A stretch of DNA of 62,105 bases, filler included, from Asterionella formosa (GCA_002256025.1; 11 parts of 11 records of this genome joined end to end with filler, not necessarily neighbours in it), one strand, 5' to 3'; positions 241 through 51,768 are shown, counted from the first letter of the whole stretch. Translations and numbers: made by a program. The notes: generated by a model not told the origin, from the sequence alone.

Positions 241-1600
241 TTTGTATCCTTCTTTTGCATATTCATGAACATGGACTCCAAAGCAATGCTGTTTGTAGAC
301 TCACGTAGTTGCTCGACTTGATCATAAATTGTATTGAACCTTGCTTGCATATCCCGTTGTTTCCCACCCTCCATACCATTTGTTGCCAACTCCTCCATGG
401 TTTGTATAGTGGCACTTCAGCAAAACACCTGAACCATCATCACTGCCAACAATTTCATTACCAGTATCCCCAGTTGTATACTAGCTCTGGGTCCATACAT
501 CCCAACTATTTTCTAAGATGAGCAAGGCATATGCTTCATCCAATACAGTCAGTTTTTTGTGTTTTTGGCTAGCATAATTACCATACGTCATTACCCGAGA
601 AAAAATGTACTTCTCTAGAATAATGAAGGGATGCTCTTCAGGGAATGGCTTATGGTATTTGGTTGAGCACGTTGCCTTTTTTGATCTGAGGTTGTGAGGT
701 TCAATTCCTGCAATTTTTTTGAGAAGCAATGATTGTTGGGTTTGACTCCCACACTCCTTACCGTCCTGCACGGTCTTGCCTGGTGTGCAAGAAATAGTGG
801 ATTGCCCCCTTACAAGCAGCTTGTGCCGCCTTCCCCAGGCGGTTGGGGTTTCCCCTAACGCTGCGGCTAAGACGATCATCTTTCGTGAAGGGTGGTTGGG
901 GACTCACCTACGCTAACAAAACTAGGGAAGCACAGGTCTTGTCAGCAGGCAGCACAATTAATATTTGCTTGCCTTGAAAAAGGGGAGTAGGAATGGGATG
1001 TATAACAGATTATCATTTTTGAAGGGATGTTCTTCAACTTTACCAAAATCTGGTGTTTCCGACCTGGACTGAACAATCTTATTCCGGGAAAGGAACTGTA
1101 ACTTTCCATACTCAACCATTCCTGTTTTTATAATTAAGTATTGTTTGGAAAAGGAAGCCAACAGCAAGCACGACACCTCATTTTGAACTTACATTTGAAA
1201 CCCTTTCTGATTGATGTTGAAACAGCATTCCTTTTTTCTGACATAACTTTGTTGATGTCACACTTATATGTGAACCAAAATGATTCAAACTCTTCGTCAG
1301 TACCATTTCTGAGTGATGGGAAGAAATGATTACGAAGAGCACCAGCAATGCTTTCGGGTTCCCCAATTTCCAAATCATAATCACCTGTGACAAATTTAAC
1401 TTTTGGAAACAATTCCTCTCTGACCCACCAGCTAGTAGTAGCCAGAAGGTTTGTCCAATGTTTGCACTGGCCAATTCCACCTACTACTCCAATTGTTAAA
1501 CGGTTGTTTTCAGCTGCTAATTCACATAGGCGCTTGATTTCCTGTGTACTCGCAGACAATAGAATTTGGAGTTTATCTCTCTCTTGTTCAGCCGTCAACC
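241..1600 (-). pseudogene. Degenerate transposon-associated ORF, interrupted by a SINE-like insertion
   Basis: Fragments FPKVKF..FW..YK..IN..MSEKRN (1134-1598) and TVLDEAYALLILENSWDVW (481-640). Probable intron 1122-1192 (GTAAGT..CAG). The frame rejoins as GKVEEHPFIILEK when 641-1036 is removed. Confidence 0.55.
641..1019 (+). mobile_element. tRNA-headed SINE-like retroposon, family A, full length with a 17-bp TSD
   Basis: A-box-like TGGCTTATGGT and B-box-like GGTTCAATTCC (698-708). Direct repeats TGAAGGGATG(C/T)TCTTCA at 624-640 and 1020-1036. Homologous copies at 47391-47540 and 51474-51768. Confidence 0.8.
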
Positions 1601-2983: not shown

Positions 2984-3426
2984 TACATCTACAACGCCGA
3001 TTACTGGTACAGCCGCCACAAAAAAAACGCTACCGGTAGTCAAATATGATCACACAAATTAATTATTTGGGTGGCCCAATATGACGAATTTAGCTACTAC
3101 GTACATAATTTAAGGGTATGACATCACAATAAAATATGATGCATCATACAATATACGGTATATGGACGGAGTGAACTAAAATAGTTTCGACAACTTCCAT
3201 AATTATTTTAGAAACCCACATAATTTTTGGGGCCAACTGACAATATTTTCTTGCGACACGAAGAAAAATTTGTTCAGTAATAATCTCTATATTACGGTAC
3301 TTTTCTCTACAATTCGCAACATTTCCGTTCACAAATATTCTTCACTCTGACTACCATAACCGATTTATCTGATAGCTAGCTAGTATAGGTGATGATAATA
3401 AAATTTCTTACTGCCATGCATACCGG
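2984..3426 (+). repeat. Terminus of a young TIR-type element; 2984-3223 matches 1-240
   Basis: Starts TA|CATCTACAACGCC and truncates the Crypton relic. The far boundary is uncertain; it abuts the Copia LTR at 3427. Confidence 0.7.
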
Positions 3427-3756
3427 TGTTAAAGTATCTAGTAATCTTGAGTAGTATACGTCTATACTTCACTCTCAGCTAGCTATTTCTCGTGATCTAC
3501 TTCTAGATCTTTAGTAAATGTCAGAAACTCACTTTCTGCTTTACTTTATTGTGAGCTTTCTACTTCTTAGAATAAGCTCCTTCCTAAGATCCATTTTCGA
3601 TCTTTCAACTTCTACTTCAATCATCTCGTCATCTTCTTTACCAAAACAATTCTGTGGTCCCTGGGAGCCACATTTACTATAACACATAGTTGGAGCTTAA
3701 TCATAGTTGCAGTCACTTTTGTGACTCGACTCAAATGATCCCTTCACTATTTGTCA
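3427..3756 (-). mobile_element. 3' LTR of a Ty1/Copia element
   Basis: Minus strand TG(ACA)...CTTTAACA, directly after the purine-rich tract GAGATCAGGGAGAG (3757-3770) and the end of the RNase H ORF. Confidence 0.7.
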
Positions 3757-5242
3757 CTCTCCCTGATCTCTGGTCCAACAGTCCAGTGTACCGTTTGAGA
3801 TATTAGACGCATGTAGATCGTGGATTCTGGTTATGACATTCTTTGACAGAAGATCTGATGGATTCTTCTCCGTGTTGACATATTGAACTCTTATGTCTCC
3901 ACATTCAACTTTCTCGCGTATAAAGTGATGTCTCACATCAATGTGTTTTGTTCGTCCTCCAACTTACTTGTTCTTCGATAGGAATATTGCGCCAGTATTA
4001 TCTTCTGCACGTTGTTTCCTTTGCTCCAATTGACAGTGACACATATTCAGCCTCAGTGCTTGACAATGTCACTGTTGCCTGCCCTTTTGATATCCAATTA
4101 ACTAGCCCAGTACCGCCAATGGTTCCCAAATAGGCACTCGTTGATTTTCTTGTGTCAGGATTATCGCCGAAAGAGCTGTCAACGACATCTTGTACACGTA
4201 GTTCCTTTCGTGGTCTCAACTTCAATCTTCGATTTTCAGGTTTAGCACAAATATACCCAAGTAGTCTTTCTACTGCGTTCCAGTGCTCATCACCTGGATT
4301 ATCCAAATGTTGTGACAATTCTCGGCATGCATTGGATCAAACAGGACCAATATTTTTAACGTAGTATAGTAGCTTGCCTACCATAGATCGGTACTCTTTA
4401 CTATGCTTCACTGGATTCCCAGTTGACTTTCTCAGCGTAGTACTGGGGAAAGCCGGAGTTGCTGCATCTTTTGGGAAATGTCCAAAGATATCTTTGAAAT
4501 CGTCTTTCATATCTTGGACAAAACTTTCCATACTACTCTCTAAGTAGCGTCCTGTAGAATCCTCTCCCCATTTGTACCACACGCCCAGGTGTTTCTTCAA
4601 TTGTCCAAGCTCTTTAATTGTGAAATATTTCTTTATCTCATTCTTGAACCACTCTACATCACTAGGCTTTCCGGCTATAGCGCAGTCATCAACGTGTGAG
4701 GCAATTAGTAACATTAATTTCCCATTCCGTTTCAAATAGAAAATACATGGGTCCACTTGACATTGAGTCAGACCAACTAATTTCAAAATTTCAACCAGTT
4801 TCTTAAAAAACTGCAAAGCTCCCTGAACTGTCCCATTCATCGCTTTTTTGAGCAAGATGCAATAATTTTCGGTGTCGGCTTTTGTTTCATAGCCAAGCTC
4901 TTCTATTCCTTCTGGCCAGCCAATATAGATTGCTTCGTCTATATCACCTTCTAGGAATGCCGCTTCCACATCAACAATTTCGCAAATCCATCGTTCGTTA
5001 ACATCCTTGCTGTGATTATAGAGTGTGATTGCAAAAACTGTTCTTGTTGTTGTATCGGTTGCAACTGGGGCAAATGACTCTGTGAAGTCGACGCCAAGGA
5101 TTTGTACATATCCCTTCACAACAATTCGTCCTTTGTAGCGGATGGATAAGTCTTGTTCAGACTTCTTCTTAAACACCCATCGACTGCCTAGCATCTTGCG
5201 TTCATTGAGCATTTTCCTTGGAAATTTCTCCCACACTTTCAT
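3754..5242 (-). mobile_element. Ty1/Copia pol (reverse transcriptase + RNase H), frameshifted and 5'-truncated
   Basis: RWVFKKK..RYKGRIVVKGY, FAPV, DVEAAFLEG, DPCIF, SHVDDC, SSTEAEY and HHFIRE..NPSDLLSK across ORFs 4337-5242, 3998-4318 and 3754-3936. Confidence 0.95.
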
Positions 5243-5568
5243 CTAAGCCGCGTATTACGTGAAGTGACCATCACGTAAATAAGCCTAGTTGATTTTGAAT
5301 GGATCACATGAATTAGTTGAATACATCAAAATGCTTACTTGAATATATCTATATATTATCTGAATACATCACGTTAATTATTTGATCAGAGTATCATGCA
5401 TGCATTCCTGATCATCACTATATTACGTGATCACCTTCACATAATTATTTGAAATACTTCACATAATTATTTGAAATACTTCAATTAATTCTGTAATTCA
5501 GTTCACATTGCCTTAAATTTTTGTTCACGTAATTCTATAATATGGTTCATGTAATTTATTAAATTTTT
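5240..5568 (+). mobile_element. Terminus of a TIR DNA transposon inserted into the Copia RT; 22-bp subterminal repeats
   Basis: Starts CATCTAAGCCGCGTATTACGTGA. Reverse-complement homolog at 17004-17347. Contains TTCACATAATTATTTGAAATAC units. Confidence 0.75.
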
Positions 5569-5668: not shown

Positions 5669-6497
5669 TCTGAAGTCATAATAACATGGATAAAGAAATT
5701 GCGAATGAAGTTTTCCTTCGATGAAAGAAGATACATCAACAGTGCCAATGATGATAGTATCAGTGCTGACAATGAATAATGATCATATCATGAGAACCAT
5801 CATGCGAGACAATCGCATATTGCATCATGCAGGCATTATAAACTGTAAAATAACTTCTGTATATTATGCTATATATTTTTTTATTTTCAGGCATCATCGT
5901 TCATACATCATCCATCATTCATCATCTATTCATCAGCATCATCAAATTGACTATTGTCCACTTCGAGGGGAGGAGAGGGGGAATGTCTAGCATATTATTG
6001 AGCAGATCAAGCATAGCTTCTCATTTGTCCACTGTGTCTTCGTCATCTTCAATTTTAACCGGACACATGAATTGTTGCCATGGGCAGTGACAAGGTGGTC
6101 ATTCTCAGCCTCTCATGGTCCTCCTCTCCCAGGCTTTCATACAATCACAAATGGGTTGGTGTTGGTTGAGTAAACAGTACAAGAATTACATAATATCACT
6201 TCGAACATTCTCACATGGTGACACTGTACCTGCTCAGCTACCAATCATCTCAAAAAACATGGGCCAAGGGAAAGCGGGGCGTTAAGGTAGCTCTAAGTCA
6301 TCACTACATATTTCATGAGCAACTGTAATACTTCCATTCGACAATGGTCACTAACATATATGGGACTCAAGCTATTGCCAGGTTAAATAAGAGATTACAA
6401 TTAAAGGTTTGCAAAATGTAAATTACTTAAACCCCATAGTCAGCATGCTGCAGTTGATTTCCTCGCTCAATACAGAATGCTGTCAAGGCTGGGCAGC

Positions 6498-7173
6498 CTA
6501 ATTAGGTTCCAGAACAACGGAAATAGCGTGGAAGATGCCGTTGTCGCACGCAATGTCGACAGGGAAGGAAGATCCGCCTCCGAAGTTATCCTCCTGTCCA
6601 ACGATAGCGTCGTTGACAAAGGTCTTGCGGAACTTGCGCTGGTACATGAGAGCCTTGCCGTTGAGCGTAGGGAGATCACCAGTAATGGCGCTTGCAGTGT
6701 ATTTTCCTGGCACGACGTGGTACTTGAGGACTTCGGCCGTCAATGGCTTGCTGTACGCAGCGAAGGCGGAGTCGGTAGGTGCGAAGACAGTGAAGGGGCC
6801 AGGTCCCTTGAGTGCGTCTCCGAGGCCAGCGGCGTTGACGGCATTCACAAACGCACTGAAGTTATCGTAGCCCTTGACTTCATTCTCTTCCTTACCAACC
6901 ATCACACCTTCGGATCCCCAGACCACGGCAGGTCCTTTGAGACTGGCAGCCGTGTCCATGATGTTTGCCGCGAGGGACACAGATGGGCGAAAGGCTATTG
7001 TTGGAGGGGAAAACGTACATGTGTCAAATCATTATGGTTAGATCTTGAGAGACAACAAATTAGATAATTGATATTACGCGGACTTCACCGGTTGACTTAC
7101 CAATTGGAGTAGGGGCAAATGCTGAGGCAGAGGCGACAAGCGCCATGAGGACAACGGATTCCTTAAACATCAT
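6498..7173 (-). CDS. Fasciclin (FAS1) domain protein with a bipartite plastid-targeting presequence, copy A (exons 7173-7101 and 6994-6498)
   Basis: Exon 1 MMFKESVVLMALVASASAFAPTPI. A 106-nt GTAAGT..TAG intron (6995-7100) splices in frame. FAS1 motifs GPFTVFAPTDSAF, LKYHVVPG and NGIFHAI. Confidence 0.9.
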
Positions 7174-9901: not shown

Positions 9902-10619
9902 TTACTGAACGCCACCAAGGCCGGCTTCAGCACCGACGGCGGCAAAGCTAGGGTCCAAGACGGTGGAGATGGCGTGGATGATACCGTTGTCGCACGCAAT
10001 GTCGACAGGGAAGGAAGATCCGCCTCCGAAGTTATCCTCCTGTCCGACAATAGCGTCATCTACAAAGGTCTTGCGGAACTTGCGCTGGTACATGAGAGCC
10101 TTGCCGTTGAGCGTAGGGAGATCACCAGTAATGGCGCCTGCAGTGTATTTTCCTGGCACGACGTGGTACTTGAGGACTTCGGCCGTCAATGGCTTGCTGT
10201 ACGCAGCGAAGGCGGAGTCGGTAGGTACGAAGACAGTGAAGGGGCCAGGTCCCTTGAGTGCGTCTCCGAGGCCAGCGGCGTTGACGGCATTCACAAACGC
10301 ACTGAAGTTATCGTAGCCCTTGACTTCATTCTCTTCCTTACCAACCATCACACCTTCGGATCCCCAGACCACGGCAGGTCCTTTGAGACTGGCAGCCGTG
10401 TCCATGATGTTTGCCGCGAGGGACATCGATGGGCGAAAGGCTATTATTGGAGGGGAAAACGGACAGATATCAAAGCATAATGGTTAGATTTCGAGAGACA
10501 AGAAATTAGACAATCGAGATCAAGCGGACTTCACCGGTTAACTAACCAATTGGAGTAGGGGCAAATGCTGAGGCAGAGGCGACAAGCGCCATGAGGACAA
10601 CGGATTCCTTAAACATCAT
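9902..10619 (-). CDS. Fasciclin (FAS1) domain protein with a bipartite plastid-targeting presequence, copy B (exons 10619-10547 and 10440-9902)
   Basis: Same exon 1 as copy A and a 106-nt GT..AG intron (10441-10546). Near-identical FAS1 core with a different C-terminus. Confidence 0.9.
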
Positions 10620-17003: not shown

Positions 17004-17347
17004 CTAGAATTATGTGAACGAAATTACAGAATTACGTGAAGTATTTCAAATAATTATGTGAAGTATTTTCAAATAATTATGTGAAGTATTTCAAATAATT
17101 ATGTGAAGTATTTCAAATAATTATGTGAAGTATTTCAAATAAATATGTGAAGGTGATCACATAATATAGTGATGATCAGGAATGCATGCATGATACTTTG
17201 ATCAAATATTTAACATGATGTATTCAGATAATATATAGATATATTCAACTATGTATTTTGATATATTCAACTAATTCATGTGATGCATTCAAAATCAACT
17301 AGGCTTATTTATGTGATGGTCACGTCACGTAATACGCGGCTTAGATG
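17004..17347 (-). mobile_element. Terminus of the same TIR family as 5240-5568, with about five 22-bp subterminal repeats
   Basis: Ends ...CGTAATACGCGGCTTAGATG|TA. GTGAAGTATTTCAAATAATTAT tandem at about 17036-17150. Confidence 0.75.
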
Positions 17348-17489
17348 TAAATGGTTGATTGGTGCCAGCAGAGAGAGGTTCCGGTTTTTTAAATCCAAGC
17401 GCCATAGTAAACTTTCAACCGGAGACAATCTGTTTTTGAGGGATGCTCAAGGGAGACTGGGCCATTGGATTTCATAAAAGCTGGGTGGA

Positions 17490-36149: not shown

Positions 36150-37280
36150 ATCGTTGTGCAAGTAACAAGAAGGGTAGACCACATAAGGACCTTCACACAA
36201 ACCTGTCTCCACCTTGCTTGCTCATACCATTGAACATAAATGTCCTTGACTCTGCCCATTGACCACCCACTATGCACACTGGTGATAGAAGCTGATGAAG
36301 TTCCCCCTGGGCAGGCACTAGTATAAATAGCAGCCCCCTTCCATATACTGTGCATGCTGATGTTTTTTGATTCAATATCTTATTCGAATAGCTGTCCTTT
36401 CTTGGCTTCTGCTTTAAAATTAGATGATAATCTCTTAAATTGATTGTGACCAGGAGGGAATAAGCAACTATCTCCTTTATCAACATTATTAAATCTTCCC
36501 AAGTATACACCAAGAGAAAATATAGGACACACTTTCTGGTCAATTGGAATTGCATAAATATTTCTGGGATATTTTGATTGAGTCCCTTTCTGATCTGTCT
36601 TGGTGGTTGCAAAGTACTTACTCAGAGCATCGTCAGTACACTCCATATGTGACAAGCAGATTTGGCTTGTGCTATTGAAAATGCAAATCAAATTCCAAGT
36701 GAAGACCAGTAGGAATAGTAGGTGACCCCAAATGTCATCACCAGTTCCTAACTCAATAAACCAAGTGGGGGAATGGCTTAATTGGTTAGCACACCTCATG
36801 AGGTGGCGGGTTCGATTCCTGAACTATCCACCTGTATTTGTTTCATATAGTCCCTAGGGTTCTGGGGATGCAGCTGACAAAGAGACAGGTACTGTTGTGC
36901 CGTACAGACTCATAAAACTGGTACTAATTGTTTCCATTCAAGTGGGCATGAGTGCGAAATTGGATAGCTTTAACGTACTATAAAAATGTAATCAACTTTT
37001 AACTCAATGAACCAAGAACAAAGGAGGGGATATAGTTGATTGTTCATGGGTTCCTTACCCTCACAAATCTCTCCTAACTCATAATGATTCTCTACTGCAA
37101 TAATCCGATAAAAACCATGCAAAAGGTTGCTAAGTTCCTTCTCAAAATCAACGGTGAAACCTGTGCCATTATGTTGCCTGAATAATTTGAATAGAGCTGA
37201 TTGCTGATTCCCATAGTAGCTATTGGACAGCTGATCTTGCTTGTGTCCAAGAATGACAAAGGCTCTGGATTAAAGAACAT
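36150..37280 (-). mobile_element. Degenerate Crypton-type tyrosine recombinase, split by a SINE-like insertion
   Basis: EGKEPM..LY..LCSWFIELGT | WNLIC, DDAL..YFATTKTDQKG, PRNIYA.P...VCPIFSLGVY, HSIWKGAA, GWSMGRVKDIY and GDRFV. Confidence 0.85.
36766..36999 (+). mobile_element. tRNA-headed SINE-like retroposon, family B, with a 17-bp TSD
   Basis: GGGGGAATGGCTTAATTGGTTAGCAC (A-box) ... GGTTCGATTCC (B-box). Direct repeats TAACTCAAT(A/G)AACCAAG at 36749-36765 and 37000-37016. Confidence 0.8.
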
Positions 37281-38237: not shown

Positions 38238-38658
38238 TGTTAAAGTGAGCTCATCTACGTAGTTAGGACTCGGAGTCAAACGAGTCAAACGATTCGAATG
38301 AGTCCACTTTGATGTACCAAGCTCTCATCAACCACACATTATACTTTGCTACTCCGAATATAATGAGCCGGACAATATAAGCTATTTCGGAAGACCGATA
38401 GTTTGAAATGAATGATCATGGTTAAATACCTATGATCAGTAAGTGTGAGATAGACATGGGTCTATCTATGATTGTATGTTCCTAGAAATGCAAACAGCAT
38501 TTGGAGAATAGTTCGTTTGTTTTGTTCAAACAGAACAACCTAAACTAGATTAGTAAACTCACAATAAGAATATAGAAACGGAAAGAGAAACGAACGTCTC
38601 TATCTATAGTCTTCTTTGTCTAACGATATAGATCTATACTAAAGGTAATACTTTAACA
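38238..38658 (+). mobile_element. 5' LTR of a Ty1/Copia element
   Basis: TGTTAAAGT ... ACTTTAACA (9-bp inverted termini), 29 nt upstream of the gag ATG. Ends ATACTTTAACA like the LTR at 3427. Confidence 0.75.
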
Positions 38659-38687
38659 CGTTTATAAACGGACTTAAGTGTTTTAAC

Positions 38688-39520
38688 ATGTCTACAGAAA
38701 TGTCTGAAGAGAGCATGAGGCTCATCAAGTTTGATGGCAACGAAACGAACTGGTACCAGTGGAGCGTTAAAACGCTCGCTCTGGCGAAGGCAAGAGGATT
38801 CCGAACGATGTACTCCAAGAACCATAACCCGTGTTCTGACGAAGAGTACGAAGTCGAGACAGACAAAGGAGTCAGGGCTATCTACGAGGCCAACGACAAG
38901 GCGTACCAGTTGCTCATCATGAGCTGCACCGGAATCGCCTTCGGACTCGTAAACCAAGCCAAAACGAAAACGTTGATCGATGGCGATGCATACATGGCGT
39001 GGAAGAACCTCGAAGCGAGGTATGCCCCCCATTCTGTGTCGGACCTGATCCAGCTGGCAAGCGATTTCAACAAATGCAAGCTGAACGATAGCTCCTCTGA
39101 TCCAGACGAATGGTTCATTGAGCTCGATCTAATACAAAGCAAGATGATGGCGATCGACCCGTCATTTGAGAAGAAAGAAATGGAAGTGATTGCGAACGTT
39201 ATCGACAAGCTTCCAGTGGAGTACAGCGAGGTTGTTACAGTCGTCGAGGGCATGACAACAATCAGCCTCAACGAATTGAAAGGCAAAATCCGAGCATTCT
39301 ACAAACGAAAGCTAAAGGGCACGAAGAGCACAAAGGAGATCGCCCTATTCACGCAGAAATACAGAGGTATCTGCAAGAACTGCGGCAAACAAGGGCACAA
39401 GGCCGACGTGTGCCGATCGAAAACGAACACAAGCGGAACGAATGCAAACGGTACGAACGAAAAAAATGAGATAAAGTGCTATAATTGCAATAAATATGTC
39501 GGGCATATTGCAAGAGACTG
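38688..39520 (+). CDS. Copia gag polyprotein (3'-partial, intact frame)
   Basis: KFDG..NW..W, UBN2-like core (AY..L, AW.NL..RY, DPDEWF.EL, LP.EY) and Zn knuckles CKNCGKQGHKADVC and CYNCNKYVGHIARDC. Confidence 0.9.
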
Positions 39521-39631
39521 NNNNNNNNNNNNNNNNNNNNNNNNNNNNNNNNNNNNNNNNNNNNTTAATTAATTAANNNNNNNNNNNNNNNNNNNNNNNN
39601 NNNNNNNNNNNNNNNNNNNNTTGTTTTTTTT

Positions 39632-40660: not shown

Positions 40661-42959
40661 ACATTACTGTCCACCACAATACCCCTCCAAACACTCCAAT
40701 TTCTTTTGTCTCGGTTGAATATGAAGGGCTGGACGGTCTATTCTTTTATCACAAAAAATGGTGAAGATTCAACTCAAATATAGGAATGAGATCATCGAGC
40801 GTTGTGTTCACCATCGCAGTATTACAATTCAGAATATCATTGTTGCAAGCATGGAAGGCGACGCCCATTGTACCGAGCACCACACCGATATTTTCCACAA
40901 AATATCTTCTAATGAACCTGGCACAGATAACATTCTCAATTTCCCTAATCAACTTAATCGAATTTGTGAGGAATTTTTCTCCCTTGGCATCTTTGAAGAA
41001 AATGTAATAAATTTGGTCACCTTCAGCCTCCATTGCCTTGAGGATGCTTGTCAACACTCCCGGCTTAAGCATGAACATCATCTCTGATTCTGGGTTAATC
41101 ATGCAATGGCCTCTTCACCACAAACCCATTGAATGAAGGGGTGTATCAAAGGCAAATTGTATTGAGCGAGAGTTCGTGGTTGAAGTAAGGAATCTTGTAG
41201 CTCTGATGTCAGTTGCCTGTCAATGTACTCCACATAAACAAAAACGGATTTATTGATGTATTCTACCACATCATACCGAATACCATATAATTCAGTGTCC
41301 TGGCCCCCTCAATGTACAATGCCATGACTGAATTTGACTGATTTTACTTAAGGGTAGGGGGACAGGAAAATGAAGAGATTTCCCTTATAATGGACCTACC
41401 TACATTCATTTTATCTGTTCTACAGGATGGAGCTCATTTTTCTAATATGTATTAATACGACAACTATTTCTGTCCGGTGAAAAATGAGAAAGTTCTTTGC
41501 CTCACAAGAAAAACGCGACTTTATGTTGCTATCGGCGATCTCAATTTTCGATATCATTATTAGTGTTATTACTTTACTTCTTTCACCATTTTATTTTCTA
41601 ATGTCATGTTTAATGTATGTACTAGCAAGCAGCAAAGCGTTTTTCTCAATTTGCGCGGAGATAATTCGTATTTTTGTCATGTCATGGTTGCTATAACATG
41701 ATGCAGGATTCTCGAGCTACTCACAACACTACCTTCATACTCTAGTGTTTTATATGGACAAAGTAATCCCAAATTCGGAGCTAAATATTTATATACCAGT
41801 GCCTACGAGAAAAACAGAATTACAGTATGTTACTTTGTCTATGTCTAGAAATTATTGGGTGTGCAGCAACCTCAGGGGGGGGGAGGCCAGGACTCTGAAT
41901 TATATGGTACGTGTACGGAATTCATGCATTCTCACGCTTGTGTATATTCGGAGAAACAAATAATTGAGTTGGTAGATGCTACGAATTTGTAGCTCTCATG
42001 CAGTAAAAGTTGCTAGAAAAATGGTTCTACACAATTGTTTGTTTTACTTTGTTTGCTAATAGCGATTGCTTTTATAAAAGAGTGAGCTTTATGTAAATGT
42101 AAATTTGAAATGTATAGTTTTCAAACTTCCAAGCTAATGCATGTTTCAAAATAGAGGTGATATTCGGTGGTGAGGTTCATTTATGTTCCCAACTTGAATT
42201 GAGAATAAACTACATCCTCTTCCTTAATACACTTTGTCTAATCTTGACCTGTCTCGACTTAGGCCAGTTGCTGTTTGAGAGATGACTGATTAAAGAATGA
42301 TCCTGTTAATCATAACTAGATCATATCTAGTTTGCTTCTTTAATTTTCCTTGATGTTGTGGACATATCTGTAATTGTCTAATCAATCATTTATTGATTTG
42401 GCCTCTAGGTCTGATCACCTTCTAGAGTCCATTTAAAAGGTTAGAGAGAACTTCTCCTGAAAGTTCCTCTCTAAACTCTGGCATTTTACACGCGATATTC
42501 AATCATGTGTCTTTGAATCAATTATCTAGTGGATTGTGGTACATGTTACTAATCAGGTCACTAGAGACGAAAATATATTGACACTCTCATAACCTGATCT
42601 AGAATCTGGAATCTCTATATGTTTCACCAATGGAGCCATGTTCTATTTTACATTTATTTACATTGTAAAAAAGTAGATTACGTTTTATTGTTACATTTTA
42701 TCTGGTACCGGTAGACTACTTTCAAGGACTGTATCATAACAGTTTTACCGATCTCTTGAATAGTAAAATATCTTGATGATTTCTGATGCCAGCAATGATG
42801 TGCAATCATAACTATTATGTAGATCGCTGATATGCTGTAGTAGAACATTGTGTCGTCAGAGTACAATACAACCTGTTCTATCTCCCAATAATAGTGCACA
42901 TACGCTTGAATCCATTCGGCGTGAATGTTGGCAAGAGCTGAGGCGAAAAGAAGCAGCTC

Positions 42960-44807
42960 ATGAAGCGAAGAGGATACTCATTGGCCTCGAAGTCCTCTGT
43001 CGATTTCAGTAATATTATGGTCAAGACAAGAGAGGCTGGAAAAGGGAGGAACGAACTTGATCTTAGCTTGTCAAGTCTTGGCTCTTCCATTCTTGAAGAG
43101 GAAGAGCACAATGACATCAGAAACTACGCTTTGCTGATTGCCTTGTATACTCTACAGGGAATTCCGATGGGTCTATCCGCGTCCATTCCTTTTTTGATCC
43201 AGCAGAAGGTCAAACTGATTGCTTCGGCGGCCGCTCTTGCTTCCACTGCGGGGGCGGCTGGGGCTGCTTCTTCACCGACAGGCGCAGTGGCCGTTTCTGC
43301 TGCACGACTTTCATATAACGCTAACGCAATCTTTGCACTTTGTTCTTGGCCCTTTTCCATGAAATTGTTATGGGCGCCAATTGTTGACGCCGTGTTCTTC
43401 AAGCAGTTTGGTCGAAGAAAGTCTTGGTTGGTTCCAGTACAATTTATGGCTGGTTTGATTATGATATTGGGATCTGGTTTTGTAGAAAAGGAATTGGGCT
43501 TGGGATCCCTTGGTAATGTTGCTGAAACTGTTGCCGAAGGGGTGCAAGCTGCTATTACTGATATAGTCGCCCCCATGAATGTCAAGGGTGTCACGGCTTT
43601 CTTTTTCGTTTTGTATTTTCTCATGGCGACTCAAGATATTGCTGTAGATGGATGGGCACTCACTATGCTTTCAAAAAATAATCGCGGTCGAGGACCCATT
43701 TGCAATTCTATCGGACAGAACATTGGATATTTTCTGAGCTTTGTTGGGTTTCTTGCGCTAAATGACGCAGAATCCAGTGAGACAATTTGGAGACCACTTT
43801 TTCGACTACCGAGTAAACCCGGTCAAGGATTGGTCAGTCTAGGTGGATTCATAAAATTTATGGGAATATTCATGGTGGTCATAACTGCAATTGTTGCTGT
43901 CTTCAAAAATGAAGGGAAATACTACCCAAACAAAAGCTTTATTTCGCAAGAAAGCTTGTTCAAACCTCTGGGAAACCAAAAAAAAGAAACGGAAGATGAG
44001 GAGGAGTTGGATGCTGCTGTGATTGGAATCAAAGAAACCTACCATCGGTTATGGGCTGTTTGCAAACTGCCAGCAGTTCAAATGCTATTTGTCATTTTAT
44101 TGACATATCGACTCCCCACAGCTTTGAGCGATAATGTTAAGTTCCTCAAGGCGGTTGAGTTCGGAATGAGCAAGTCCACGACTGCCCTGCTTTCTCCAAT
44201 TTTAATTCTGCCCCTAGGCATCATCGTTCCCATTGTTGCAGCGAGAATATGGCATGGTCATCCACTTCGACAATTCATGATTGCCTATAAATTAAGAGTC
44301 ACGGTGGTCCCTCTTTTGGACGCCTTGATGTTACATGTCGTAAAACAGGAAAAGGCAGTATCACAAAGCCTCCATTGGTTTGCAATCATTGCTTCTACAG
44401 CAGCGCAAACCGTTGTAAACAGCCTTCAATTTAACGCGCAAATGACTTTCTTTGCCTCTCGTGTTGACCCTGCAATCGGAGGAACCTATATGACTCTACT
44501 AAATACAGCTGCTAACCTCGGTGGTACTTGGCCAGCTTCTGTCATTATGTACGCTGTAGGGGCACTTACAAAATCACCAACATGTACCGTTGATGGCTCC
44601 GGAATCGAAACTTGTTCTGGTGGTGTTGACGCCTACCTTCCGTTGCAAATAGGTCTGAGTATTATCGGAGTGGCGTGGATCTTTCTCCTTGGTACTCATG
44701 TCAGCAAAGTTGCTGAGTTACCAGATGAATCCTGGAGGACTCATTTGCTGGATGACCAAGATTCATGTGGGGATGAAGAGAATCCAAAGAATTCCAAGAA
44801 CAAGTGA
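42960..44807 (+). CDS. SLC33A1: Acetyl-CoA transporter 1 (MFS, AT-1/AmpG family)
   Basis: LYTLQGIPMGL, WPFSMKLLWAPIVD, GRRKSWLVP, ATQDIAVDGWALTML and DPAIGGTYMTLLNT. Confidence 0.93.
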   Translation: MKRRGYSLASKSSVDFSNIMVKTREAGKGRNELDLSLSSLGSSILEEEEHNDIRNYALLIALYTLQGIPMGLSASIPFLIQQKVKLIASAAALASTAGAAGAASSPTGAVAVSAARLSYNANAIFALCSWPFSMKLLWAPIVDAVFFKQFGRRKSWLVPVQFMAGLIMILGSGFVEKELGLGSLGNVAETVAEGVQAAITDIVAPMNVKGVTAFFFVLYFLMATQDIAVDGWALTMLSKNNRGRGPICNSIGQNIGYFLSFVGFLALNDAESSETIWRPLFRLPSKPGQGLVSLGGFIKFMGIFMVVITAIVAVFKNEGKYYPNKSFISQESLFKPLGNQKKETEDEEELDAAVIGIKETYHRLWAVCKLPAVQMLFVILLTYRLPTALSDNVKFLKAVEFGMSKSTTALLSPILILPLGIIVPIVAARIWHGHPLRQFMIAYKLRVTVVPLLDALMLHVVKQEKAVSQSLHWFAIIASTAAQTVVNSLQFNAQMTFFASRVDPAIGGTYMTLLNTAANLGGTWPASVIMYAVGALTKSPTCTVDGSGIETCSGGVDAYLPLQIGLSIIGVAWIFLLGTHVSKVAELPDESWRTHLLDDQDSCGDEENPKNSKNK

Positions 44808-47390: not shown

Positions 47391-47540
47391 CCCACTATTT
47401 CTTGCCACCAGGAAAGTTTGTGCGAGATGGTTAGGAGTATGGGATTCGAACCCAATAATTGCTTCTCAAAAAAATTTGCGGGAATCGAATCTCACAATCT
47501 CAGATCAAATGCAACGTGCTAAACCACTAAGCCATTCCCT
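47391..47540 (-). mobile_element. tRNA-headed SINE-like element, family A 5' portion
   Basis: Reverse complement reads GGGAATGGCTTAGTGGTTTAGCACGTTGC..GATTCGATTCCC..TTTTTTTGAGAAGCAAT..GGTTCGAATCCC..CCTGGTGGCAAGAAAATAGTGG, collinear with 641-800. Confidence 0.8.
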
Positions 47541-48329
47541 CAGGAGGAGTGATTATAATACAAACATCCTCATCACTATAATTTTGCTGAGTCTGATGCA
47601 CACATTGAAGAGATAAGGAGAAAACAGCTACCAATAATGTTTTACTGTTACTGAGCTATATTTGTGAAATACTATATCTCTGTAAAGATTCGATTAAAAC
47701 AATTTATAGACGGAAAAAAATTAATTTGTATGTGCCTCTGTTAAGGTTCCTGGGAGTTGACAGAAACTCCGAAGTAAGAAAAGTCACACACGCATAAATG
47801 CAGAAATTTGGAAAAGAATGCAGATAAACATCACATATTGGGGTGTTTTCCTCCTGTTCTTTAGCGGTTTTTGTGCGTTTGTCTCCGGGTTTTTGCATTC
47901 TTTTAAGGTATTTTCTTCCAAACTCTCTCAATTTGATACTAACAGGTATATGACATCTTGCCATGTATTGGAAGAACATTTCATATTGCCTCTGGATGTT
48001 TAATGATTCATAAGAACTCTCTTTGATGAGGAGTAGATAGCTGCTCATACTTTTCAAGAAGTATGCGAACTTCGAAAAAAACGCGAGCTTCTCAGAAGTA
48101 TGCAAAATTTGCACAAAAATGAGCCACTAGAATTTTCCATGATTTTTGGAAAATAAACAGCAAGGTTCATGCATGAGATACACATGAGGAATTTTTTCAC
48201 ATAGCAAGGAAGCACGGAGTTTCCAGGACCTCCCTGCATTTTATACTGTATACGTTGTAATAGAAGACCATACACAAGGCAACATTGACATTCCATCACA
48301 CATAAGTATGATAAAAAAGAAATAGAACC

Positions 48330-51073: not shown

Positions 51074-51473
51074 GTTCGTCTCTATTTCATTTCTGGAACT
51101 GTCTTTTTGGAAGTTTGCTCCTAAGATAGTATAGTCCGGTATTTTTTGCTTCATACTTTCATGATAGGGGAAGTAAACAGGATTGAAATGTATTTCATGA
51201 GAGAAAGGCGCCTTGTAGTTCTAAATATGCTAGGCACAAATCTGCTTTCATAGCATCTTGATTTTAACGCAGATTTCTTGTATTGCTCCCAACTCCAACA
51301 TAAGGTCAAGTGCGCGTCTCAGGTTGATTTCTGCCGTTACTGGCTGATTATGTAGTTCAAGAAAATTGTATAGCACATTAAATCTAAACATAAAATCGCA
51401 CTTATGCCTCTGTGACACATGTTAGTGTTACTGGGTGATTATGGCTTAAGAACATCGCTCCACATCTTTCGTT

Positions 51474-51768
51474 GGCTATGGCTCCAAAGGGCATGCTGCA
51501 CATTGCCTTTGATTAGAAGTTGTGTGGTTATATTCCCGAATTCGTTTTGAGAAGCAATTGTTGGGTTCGCCACCCACACGACTCTTCACCGTCTCACACG
51601 GTCTTGCCTGGTGTGCAAGGAAAAGTGGGTTGCAGTGTGCCGCCTTCCTACATACTAGGCTGTCGGAGTTTCCCCCAACTCTGCGGCTATGTAATAGGAT
51701 CAGCTTTCGCGAAAGATGCTTGGGAATCATCTAAACTAGGGAAGCACAAGGTCTTGTCGGCAGGCAGG
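51474..51768 (+). mobile_element. tRNA-headed SINE-like element, family A, diverged copy
   Basis: Shares TTTTGAGAAGCAAT, CACGGTCTTGCCTGGTGTGCAAG, GTGCCGCCTTCC, CTGCGGCTA, AACTAGGGAAGCAC and GGTCTTGTC.GCAGGCAG with 641-955. Confidence 0.8.

Follow-up and report, generated by a model that had tools for sequence, protein, structure and literature searches.

In dimeric SINEs of the Alu type, what remains of the left monomer's tail links it to the right monomer, and diatom genomes have been described as dominated by Copia-type LTR elements. Alu carries an A and a B box (PMC12193147). The tRNA-related SINEs of plants that end in poly(T), among them p-SINE of rice, TS of tobacco, ZmAU, ZmSINE1 and ZmSINE2, are described as sharing their tails with LINEs and are thought to be primed by the LINE reverse transcriptase on an RNA ending in U (PMC2774510). 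Helenus (TRIMp3), also short and non-autonomous, is described as a group of LTR retrotransposons with two LTRs, a PBS, a PPT and target-site duplications of 4–5 bp (PMC10886601). For diatoms, the Phatr3 annotation of Phaeodactylum tricornutum counts 13 putative SINE copies that amount to 1,454 bp (PMC5859163), and putative SINEs have been annotated in Cyclotella cryptica v2 (PMC7466962) and in Pleurosigma (PMC12803021). These annotations concern the same host group and nominal class as the elements reported here, but as described they are pipeline classes, given without heads, tails, duplications or empty sites; some of them may be the same family. An earlier reading of the present locus from its sequence alone (the sequence-only reading) held that SINEs are scarcely described in diatoms, which is fair, except that putative SINEs had already been annotated in P. 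tricornutum and C. cryptica (PMC5859163; PMC7466962).

The window analyzed here is a stretch of 62,105 nt from Asterionella formosa (GCA_002256025.1), in which N spacers separate eleven contigs, each about 5.5 kb long. An acetyl-CoA transporter gene lies at 42942–44807; among the 120 relatives listed, those with an organism name all come from diatoms, namely Nitzschia inconspicua (63% identity), Skeletonema marinoi, two Thalassiosira and Conticribra weissflogii, and a further one bears a JGI code that probably denotes Pseudo-nitzschia. In an Atlas comparison the nearest cluster likewise consisted mostly of Bacillariophyta, and a second such comparison carried no taxonomic signal. With the freshwater and algal labels of the runs described below, the source is accordingly a diatom that occurs in freshwater samples.

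A short repeated element in this window, called family A below, has as its closest known type within SINEs the plant poly(T)-ended group, going by description. Like the plant elements as they are described (PMC2774510), family A has A and B boxes near its 5' end, a short non-coding unit, in one copy a clear flanking duplication, and a terminal T-run in place of poly(A); unlike them, on the same comparison of descriptions, it resides in a diatom, its terminal T-run is only 4–5 nt long, and an internal run of T4–T7 directly follows the head. With Alu, family A appears to share a left unit that carries the promoter, a homopolymeric linker, a further, incomplete unit derived from a small RNA, and a tail of the same kind as the linker. 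It differs from Alu in that its head is tRNA-like rather than 7SL-derived and its linker is T-rich where that of Alu is A-rich, so that the linker of family A, unlike Alu's, should act as a Pol III terminator. The likeness to Helenus as described (PMC10886601) lies in a tRNA-like, Pol III-promoter sequence within a short non-autonomous retroelement, whereas family A is a single unit with a duplication of 14–17 bp and no LTRs.

Results

The first copy of family A (copy A) is a non-coding insert of 379 bp at 641–1019 on the plus strand, which may begin 3 nt earlier, at 638. As the sequence-only reading had stated, it lies between near-identical 17-bp repeats: the left copy of the target-site duplication at 624–640 (TGAAGGGATGCTCTTCA) and the right copy at 1020–1036 (TGAAGGGATGTTCTTCA) are identical at 16 of 17 positions, and the same pair was picked up by a direct-repeat scan of the window. 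The chance level was estimated from 200 composition-shuffled windows, in which direct repeats of at least 17 nt with at most one mismatch and a spacing of 80–900 bp were expected 0.185 times per window, at least one being present in 33 of the 200. ORFs within the element reach at most 64 aa and, because of indels, are not common to the copies.

Logan contigs from four runs (X1, which is probably the source sample, X3, X4 and X9) were aligned to positions 250–2900 of the window at a likeness of at least 80%; stretches that had no cover in X4 were disregarded. The runs that contain the first contig are labelled as algae or freshwater metagenomes, and X9 is an RNA run. Contigs shorter by 396 bp (379 + 17) were found, one each in X3, X4 and X9, in which position 634 is joined to 1031, with 66–82 nt on the shorter side and an ambiguity of 6 nt at the joint. 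A vacant target that holds the 17-mer only once would look like this. Related joints in X1 connect 622 or 624 to 1020 with 5 other letters between them, and were given no weight because their shorter side measures only 27 nt. The data therefore support a mobile insert that is discrete, non-coding and present in several copies, with a head of Pol III type and a long duplication, the latter verified by the empty-site contigs.

The host sequence reads on the minus strand, where ORF 958–1188 (...GKVEEHPF) and ORF 481–903 (...EEHPFIILEKY...) are in one frame. Since 396 equals 132 × 3, the frame is re-joined once the insert and one repeat are removed, and translation confirmed this earlier claim (GKVEEHPF/IILEKY); the frame nevertheless lies in a high-copy repeat and not in a unique gene. 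This repeat, with degenerate ORFs, occupies 250–1762 on the minus strand, and one of its members carries copy A; summed contig depth over 250–1762 is about 10 times that over 1763–2900 in X1 and X3. It follows that the empty site is the state of the collapsed consensus of the repeat, and that the contigs showing it represent a paralogue, not necessarily an allele. No Pfam family was found for the host ORFs, and a search with ORF 1134–1637 returned no longer relatives, just 7 unnamed ones from metagenomes. We also considered whether the insert might be an intron or introner, and rejected this reading: the minus-strand frame has no GT..AG pair at the equivalent positions of the two direct-repeat copies around the insert, so the insert is not a splice-ready introner. 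Contig 1 also bears a suspicious 240-bp perfect inverted repeat.

Two collinear copies had been proposed at 47391–47540 (minus strand) and 51474–51768 (plus strand), and BLASTN confirmed both. Copy B (47391–47542, minus strand) has an intact 5' end (TGAGGGAATGGCTTAGTGG), a perfect A box and a T7 run, and aligns with copy A over 47392–47539 (79.5% over 161 nt). Past 47391 it is diverged or deleted and may reach about 47295; it looks degraded towards the 3' end and not truncated at the 5' end, which departs from the way SINEs usually decay. Copy C (51474–51768, plus strand) is old and diverged, with 72–75% identity to copy A and to a metagenome locus described below (72.3% over 300 nt for 51498–51767 against copy A by BLASTN); it belongs to a different tail subfamily, the end of which is not defined, and may extend to about 51834. 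Because the window is made of contigs joined by N spacers, the three copies sit on three contigs, as had been claimed, and BLASTN found no further fragments of family A in the window.

A single scan of metagenome contigs with a 23-nt degenerate pattern yielded two more loci, L001 and L002; three scans of viral contigs and two of genome contigs yielded 0. L001 keeps about 200 nt of the 5' part (87% identical to copy A over 215 nt) and then runs into an apparent sequencing adapter, its 3' end being absent. L002 covers family positions of about 44–379 with an intact 3' end and is 89% identical to copy A over 335 nt. With the three window copies, these loci place the unit in five unrelated flanks, and it is accordingly not part of a larger LTR or DNA element.

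At each position of the element in X1, 31–81 contigs leave copy A yet continue with family sequence (loose ends), and the consensus of these loose ends at the head resembles copy B (GGGAATGGCTTAGTGGTTTAGCAC...). The tails fall into two types: 74 contigs of X1 continue past 958 with the type-1 tail, as in copy A and L002, and the type-2 tail of copy C (...GGCAGGCTATGCTATGAAAT) equals the loose-end consensus of 31 contigs in X1 and 21 in X4. Additionally, bins within the element (695–961) are 4–40 times deeper than the adjoining bins in X3, X4 and X9, where depth is summed contig depth and not copy number and was used solely for abundance and for the existence of subfamilies. Family A is abundant, with subfamilies, and the suggestion of an abundant family is thereby borne out by variant contigs and depth in X1, X3, X4 and X9. 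A comparison of flanks for duplications at copies A, B and C and at L002 was convincing at copy A only (1 of 4). The best match around copy C (8 of 9 positions, at 51426 and 51835) is at chance level, as are the matches at copy B and L002, which are short.

A second SINE-like family is present in the window at 36766–36999 on the plus strand. It is 234 bp long, starts with TGGGGGAATGGCTTAATTGGTTAGCAC, has a perfect B box in a head related to that of family A (85% identity with copy B and L001 over the initial 27 nt), and ends in ...CAACTTT. The insert is bracketed by TAACTCAAT(A/G)AACCAAG, a duplication of 17 nt that matches at 16 positions, with its left copy at 36749–36765 (TAACTCAATAAACCAAG) and its right copy at 37000–37016. 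Its body is unrelated to that of family A. A likeness between the tails of the two families, seen by eye, was examined by local alignment against 2000 shuffles and was not significant (p = 0.14 for L002 and 0.93 for copy A). The second family contains no internal T4+ run, has the same kind of ends and therefore agrees with the Pol III model of SINEs in its plain form. Although a separate family from A, it lends support to the mechanism and independently shows that elements with a tRNA-like head and a T-run tail insert here with duplications of about 17 bp.

Comparison across the families defines the ends. Immediately after unrelated flanks, TG(A/G)GGGAATGGCTTA opens copy B, L001 and the second family alike, which constitutes a sharp 5' end shared among them. 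Copy A shows TCA where these three show TG(A/G), and TCA is also how its duplication ends. As judged from the other three starts, the true 5' end of the element is probably TG(A/G)GGGAATGG; and because the TCA at the start of copy A doubles as the end of its duplication, that duplication measures 14–17 bp. On the 3' side, the T-run reported at the end of the insert is present, but only 4 T lie within the insert (1016–1019, plus strand), a fifth at 1020 being shared with the duplication. When copy A is aligned with L002 by BLASTN, the match breaks off precisely at the T-run of each sequence (889–892 in L002; T4–5).

The head of copy A (641–720, plus strand) is tRNA-shaped, with a degenerate A box at 646–656, a B box at 698–708 and a T7 run at 714–720. 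Its B box (GGTTCAATTCC) agrees with the consensus at 8 of 9 specified positions; its 'A box' (TGGCTTATGGT) agrees with TGGCNNAGTGG at only 6 of 9 and is degenerate because an indel disrupts the sequence. Both boxes announced by the sequence-only reading are therefore imperfect in copy A, and the perfect boxes belong to copy B and L001. A composite promoter pattern (TGGCNNAGTGG, a gap of 25–40 nt, then G(A/G)TTC(A/G)ANNCC), with consensus A and B boxes taken from the descriptions in PMC12193147 and PMC2774510, has a single match in the window, in copy B, and matched none of 100 shuffles; the strict A/B-box consensus also matches L001.

The Rfam tRNA model aligned to the head of L001, the most consensus-like copy, over positions 1–71 of 71 with 13.6 bits (threshold 29), or E = 4.8 after multiplication by 4227 families, and gave no match at E ≤ 10 on copy A, copy B or the second family. 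ARAGORN at default settings found no tRNA in the window; with relaxed settings it made calls that were mutually inconsistent, at different offsets in different copies, and these were not counted. By its sequence, the head can be described as tRNA-shaped, Pol III box-bearing and putatively tRNA-derived.

In each of the five copies the head is immediately followed by a T-run, which is T7 in A, B and L001 and T4 in C and L002; in the Rfam alignment of L001 this run forms, by G-U pairing, the 3' side of the acceptor stem. Stretches of T are described as Pol III terminators (PMC12193147). If the internal T4–T7 run acts as one, full-length Pol III transcripts should be rare. SINEs are commonly expected to have no T4+ terminator inside the transcribed unit, and family A has one there. 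Because of this internal run we are less confident of plain Pol III transcription; our confidence in retroposition itself is unaffected.

Beyond the T-run lies a second T-arm-like segment (738–762, plus strand; GGGTTTGACTCCC in copy A), followed by ...ACC(G/A). It matches the B box perfectly in copies B and C, L001 and L002 (e.g., at 47442–47452), and together with ACC(G/A) it resembles in sequence the 3' half of a second tRNA. In a predicted fold of L001:100–229, the two T-arm segments can pair in a long hairpin (z = -2.27). The body with the type-1 tail (763–1015, plus strand) comprises about 250 nt unrelated to tRNA and contains several conserved hairpins; these are kept in copy A, L002 and copy C, three sequences, which is no evidence of selection on structure. 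No known structured RNA was found in the body with Rfam, whose matches were noise (E ≥ 0.12, far below threshold).

Discussion

We lean towards the view that family A is a tRNA-related, T-tailed SINE moved by target-primed reverse transcription. In this account it would be a non-autonomous retroposon of roughly 370–380 bp in a freshwater diatom. Its first 72–79 nt or so would form a tRNA-shaped unit with an internal Pol III promoter, the B box lying about 32 nt past the A box, and would be followed by the T-run, the 3' half of a second tRNA-like unit, a structured body of about 250 nt and a short T-run end. TFIIIC-type boxes would set the start of transcription at the first bases of the element, and a LINE would supply the endonuclease/reverse transcriptase that copies the RNA where the chromosome has been nicked in staggered fashion, so that a target-site duplication of 14–17 bp would be left. 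The element may furthermore be a composite (dimer-like) SINE, in which a T-tailed left monomer is joined to a 5'-truncated tRNA-derived unit with a T tail of its own, the internal T-run being a relic tail of the left unit; one alignment and the analogy with Alu suggest this composite origin.

Directly observed are the insertion with its duplication and empty site, the dispersal of the unit, its sharp 5' end, its T-run 3' end, its boxes and its lack of terminal inverted repeats, LTRs and a shared ORF. From these features we infer that Pol III transcribes the entire unit, that the RNA is reverse-transcribed and that a LINE acts as partner. The LINE-driven, target-primed retrotransposition put forward in the sequence-only reading is supported in part: it gains from the long duplication and the empty site, and is weakened by the lack of a LINE in the window, by a clear duplication at only one of four copies and, as regards Pol III transcription, by the internal terminator in all five copies. 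Among the 72 window ORFs scanned, there was no non-LTR reverse transcriptase or endonuclease, the only finds being a Copia reverse transcriptase and gag. RTE-like LINEs are reported to exist in diatoms (PMC2806351), and Cyclotella cryptica has been annotated with over 2,000 LINEs (PMC7466962). The element is present in the RNA run X9, in which DNA carry-over is possible, so this presence does not prove transcription.

The internal terminator is also the starting point of the alternative that survives best, although we regard it as unlikely. Here, too, the element would be a retroposon spread by target-primed reverse transcription, but one not driven by a Pol III promoter of its own: the head would be a self-contained tRNA-like gene with its own terminator, Pol II or read-through transcripts would supply the template of 380 nt, and an enzyme such as RNase P would cut the 5' end of this template back to the tRNA-like fold. 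The element would then be a processed copy of a longer structured non-coding RNA and not a classical SINE. The retention of a T4–T7 run directly after the head in five of five copies speaks for this alternative; the strongly structured body, with hairpins conserved across A, L002 and C, agrees with it, as does, weakly, an element-to-flank depth ratio for which the RNA run X9 gives a higher value than do the DNA runs. It has to contend, however, with the second family, which combines a similar head and the same kind of ends with no internal T4+ run, and with a body in which Rfam shows no known structured RNA.

The remaining alternatives would dispense with a SINE-like retroposon. That family A is a non-autonomous DNA transposon (MITE-like) or another cut-and-paste element would account for a small, non-coding, multi-copy unit between direct repeats, but we consider it improbable. 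Terminal inverted repeats are absent from copy A, whose longest inverted pairs are internal and 9–11 nt long and whose ends are a tRNA-like head and a T-run. Moreover, a duplication of 14–17 bp exceeds, to our knowledge, that of any known DNA-transposon superfamily.

More improbable still is a solo LTR or a Helenus-type TRIM, that is, a tRNA-like sequence residing in the LTR of a non-autonomous LTR retrotransposon. Such tRNA-like sequences are known from the LTRs of Helenus as described (PMC10886601), and Copia elements are present in the window, but the duplication of 14–17 bp compares with the 4–5 bp given for Helenus (PMC10886601), copy A contains neither LTRs nor an internal direct repeat of more than 20 nt, and no copies are paired at TRIM spacing within the window. 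The idea that nothing moved at all, the difference being a deletion between chance 17-bp repeats in most copies of the host repeat or an assembly artefact, might draw on the short-contig, metagenome-type assembly and the 240-bp inverted repeat of contig 1, but deserves almost no credence and is close to refuted by the independent copies, since two other contigs and two independent metagenome contigs also contain the unit, each time between unrelated flanks, and dozens of variant contigs from the four runs align to it.

Returning to a SINE moved by target-primed reverse transcription, the two families can be read jointly, and this we offer only tentatively, as something that may well prove wrong in one part or another. 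The diatom would have two or more SINE families whose tRNA-like heads are related, which end in T-runs and whose insertions duplicate about 17 bp, and these would be the first structurally validated diatom SINEs and T-tailed SINEs outside plants. Family A would be the composite one, with a Pol III terminator in its left unit, and would spread by read-through or by a promoter-independent route.

No major concept is changed by these elements; a known class is extended to a poorly sampled host group. The verified insertion, its empty site, the boxes and the defined ends are a concrete seed for annotators of diatom genomes, and insertion polymorphisms could serve as strain markers in freshwater metagenomes. 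Family A implies LINE-type machinery that is active, or was so recently, in this lineage. For the standard Pol III model of SINEs, the conservation of the internal T-run poses a minor yet genuine problem, and the composite reading, if true, would offer a natural case in which to gauge the degree of Pol III termination that a SINE tolerates.

Host repeat around copy A

The sequence that received copy A of family A, a putative tRNA-related, T-tailed SINE, is itself a high-copy repeat (250-1762), for which the summed contig depth (obtained from aligned public sequencing-run contigs, and not a copy number) was approximately tenfold that of positions 1763-2900. The minus-strand ORFs of this host repeat are degenerate and matched no Pfam family, with its relatives being exclusively unnamed metagenome sequences. 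Positions 1-240 and 2984-3223 form a 240-nt inverted repeat with 100% complementarity, one arm of which sits at the extreme start of contig 1; this structure reflects either an assembly artefact of the fold-back type or a pair of very young terminal inverted repeats around the host repeat.

A family A copy is also carried by a public marine-metagenome contig (L001), where an apparent transposase-library adapter (L001 1-27) directly adjoins the element. The end of that contig is therefore artificial, and its copy of the element lacks the 3' part.

Other short inserts and reverse transcriptase genes

A second SINE-like family is represented by a 234-bp insert at 36766-36999, which has a tRNA-like head related to that of family A, a perfect B box and a T-run at its end, and whose body is unrelated to family A. 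This insert is flanked by its own 17-bp duplication (16/17 matching; 36749-37016 with duplications included). Among the 72 ORFs of the window that were scanned, genes related to reverse transcriptases occurred solely in Copia-type retrotransposon pieces, located at 3754-5242 on the minus strand and at 38649-39572 on the plus strand; these comprise an RVT_2 reverse transcriptase (E = 6e-36) together with a gag of the copia type.

Closely upstream of copy C, the diverged family A copy at 51474-51768 (plus strand), a 17-nt direct repeat, GTTACTGG(C/G)TGATTATG (16/17; 51336-51443), encloses a 74-bp insert (51353-51426). This insert, which had no match elsewhere within the window, could represent a fragment that was retroposed in heavily truncated form.

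Dispersed and tandem repeats

The ends of the contigs numbered 1 and 3 share an inverted match of 275 nt (92%; 5234-5508 and 17079-17353) that contains a 22-nt tandem array of AATTATGTGAAGTATTTCAAAT-like units. This match represents a further dispersed repeat, which may be subtelomeric or satellite-like. In addition, two minus-strand ORFs with Fasciclin domains (6498-7028 and 9902-10483) share a 300-nt direct repeat (93% identity; 6492-6791 and 9938-10237), which looks like the product of a recent tandem gene duplication.
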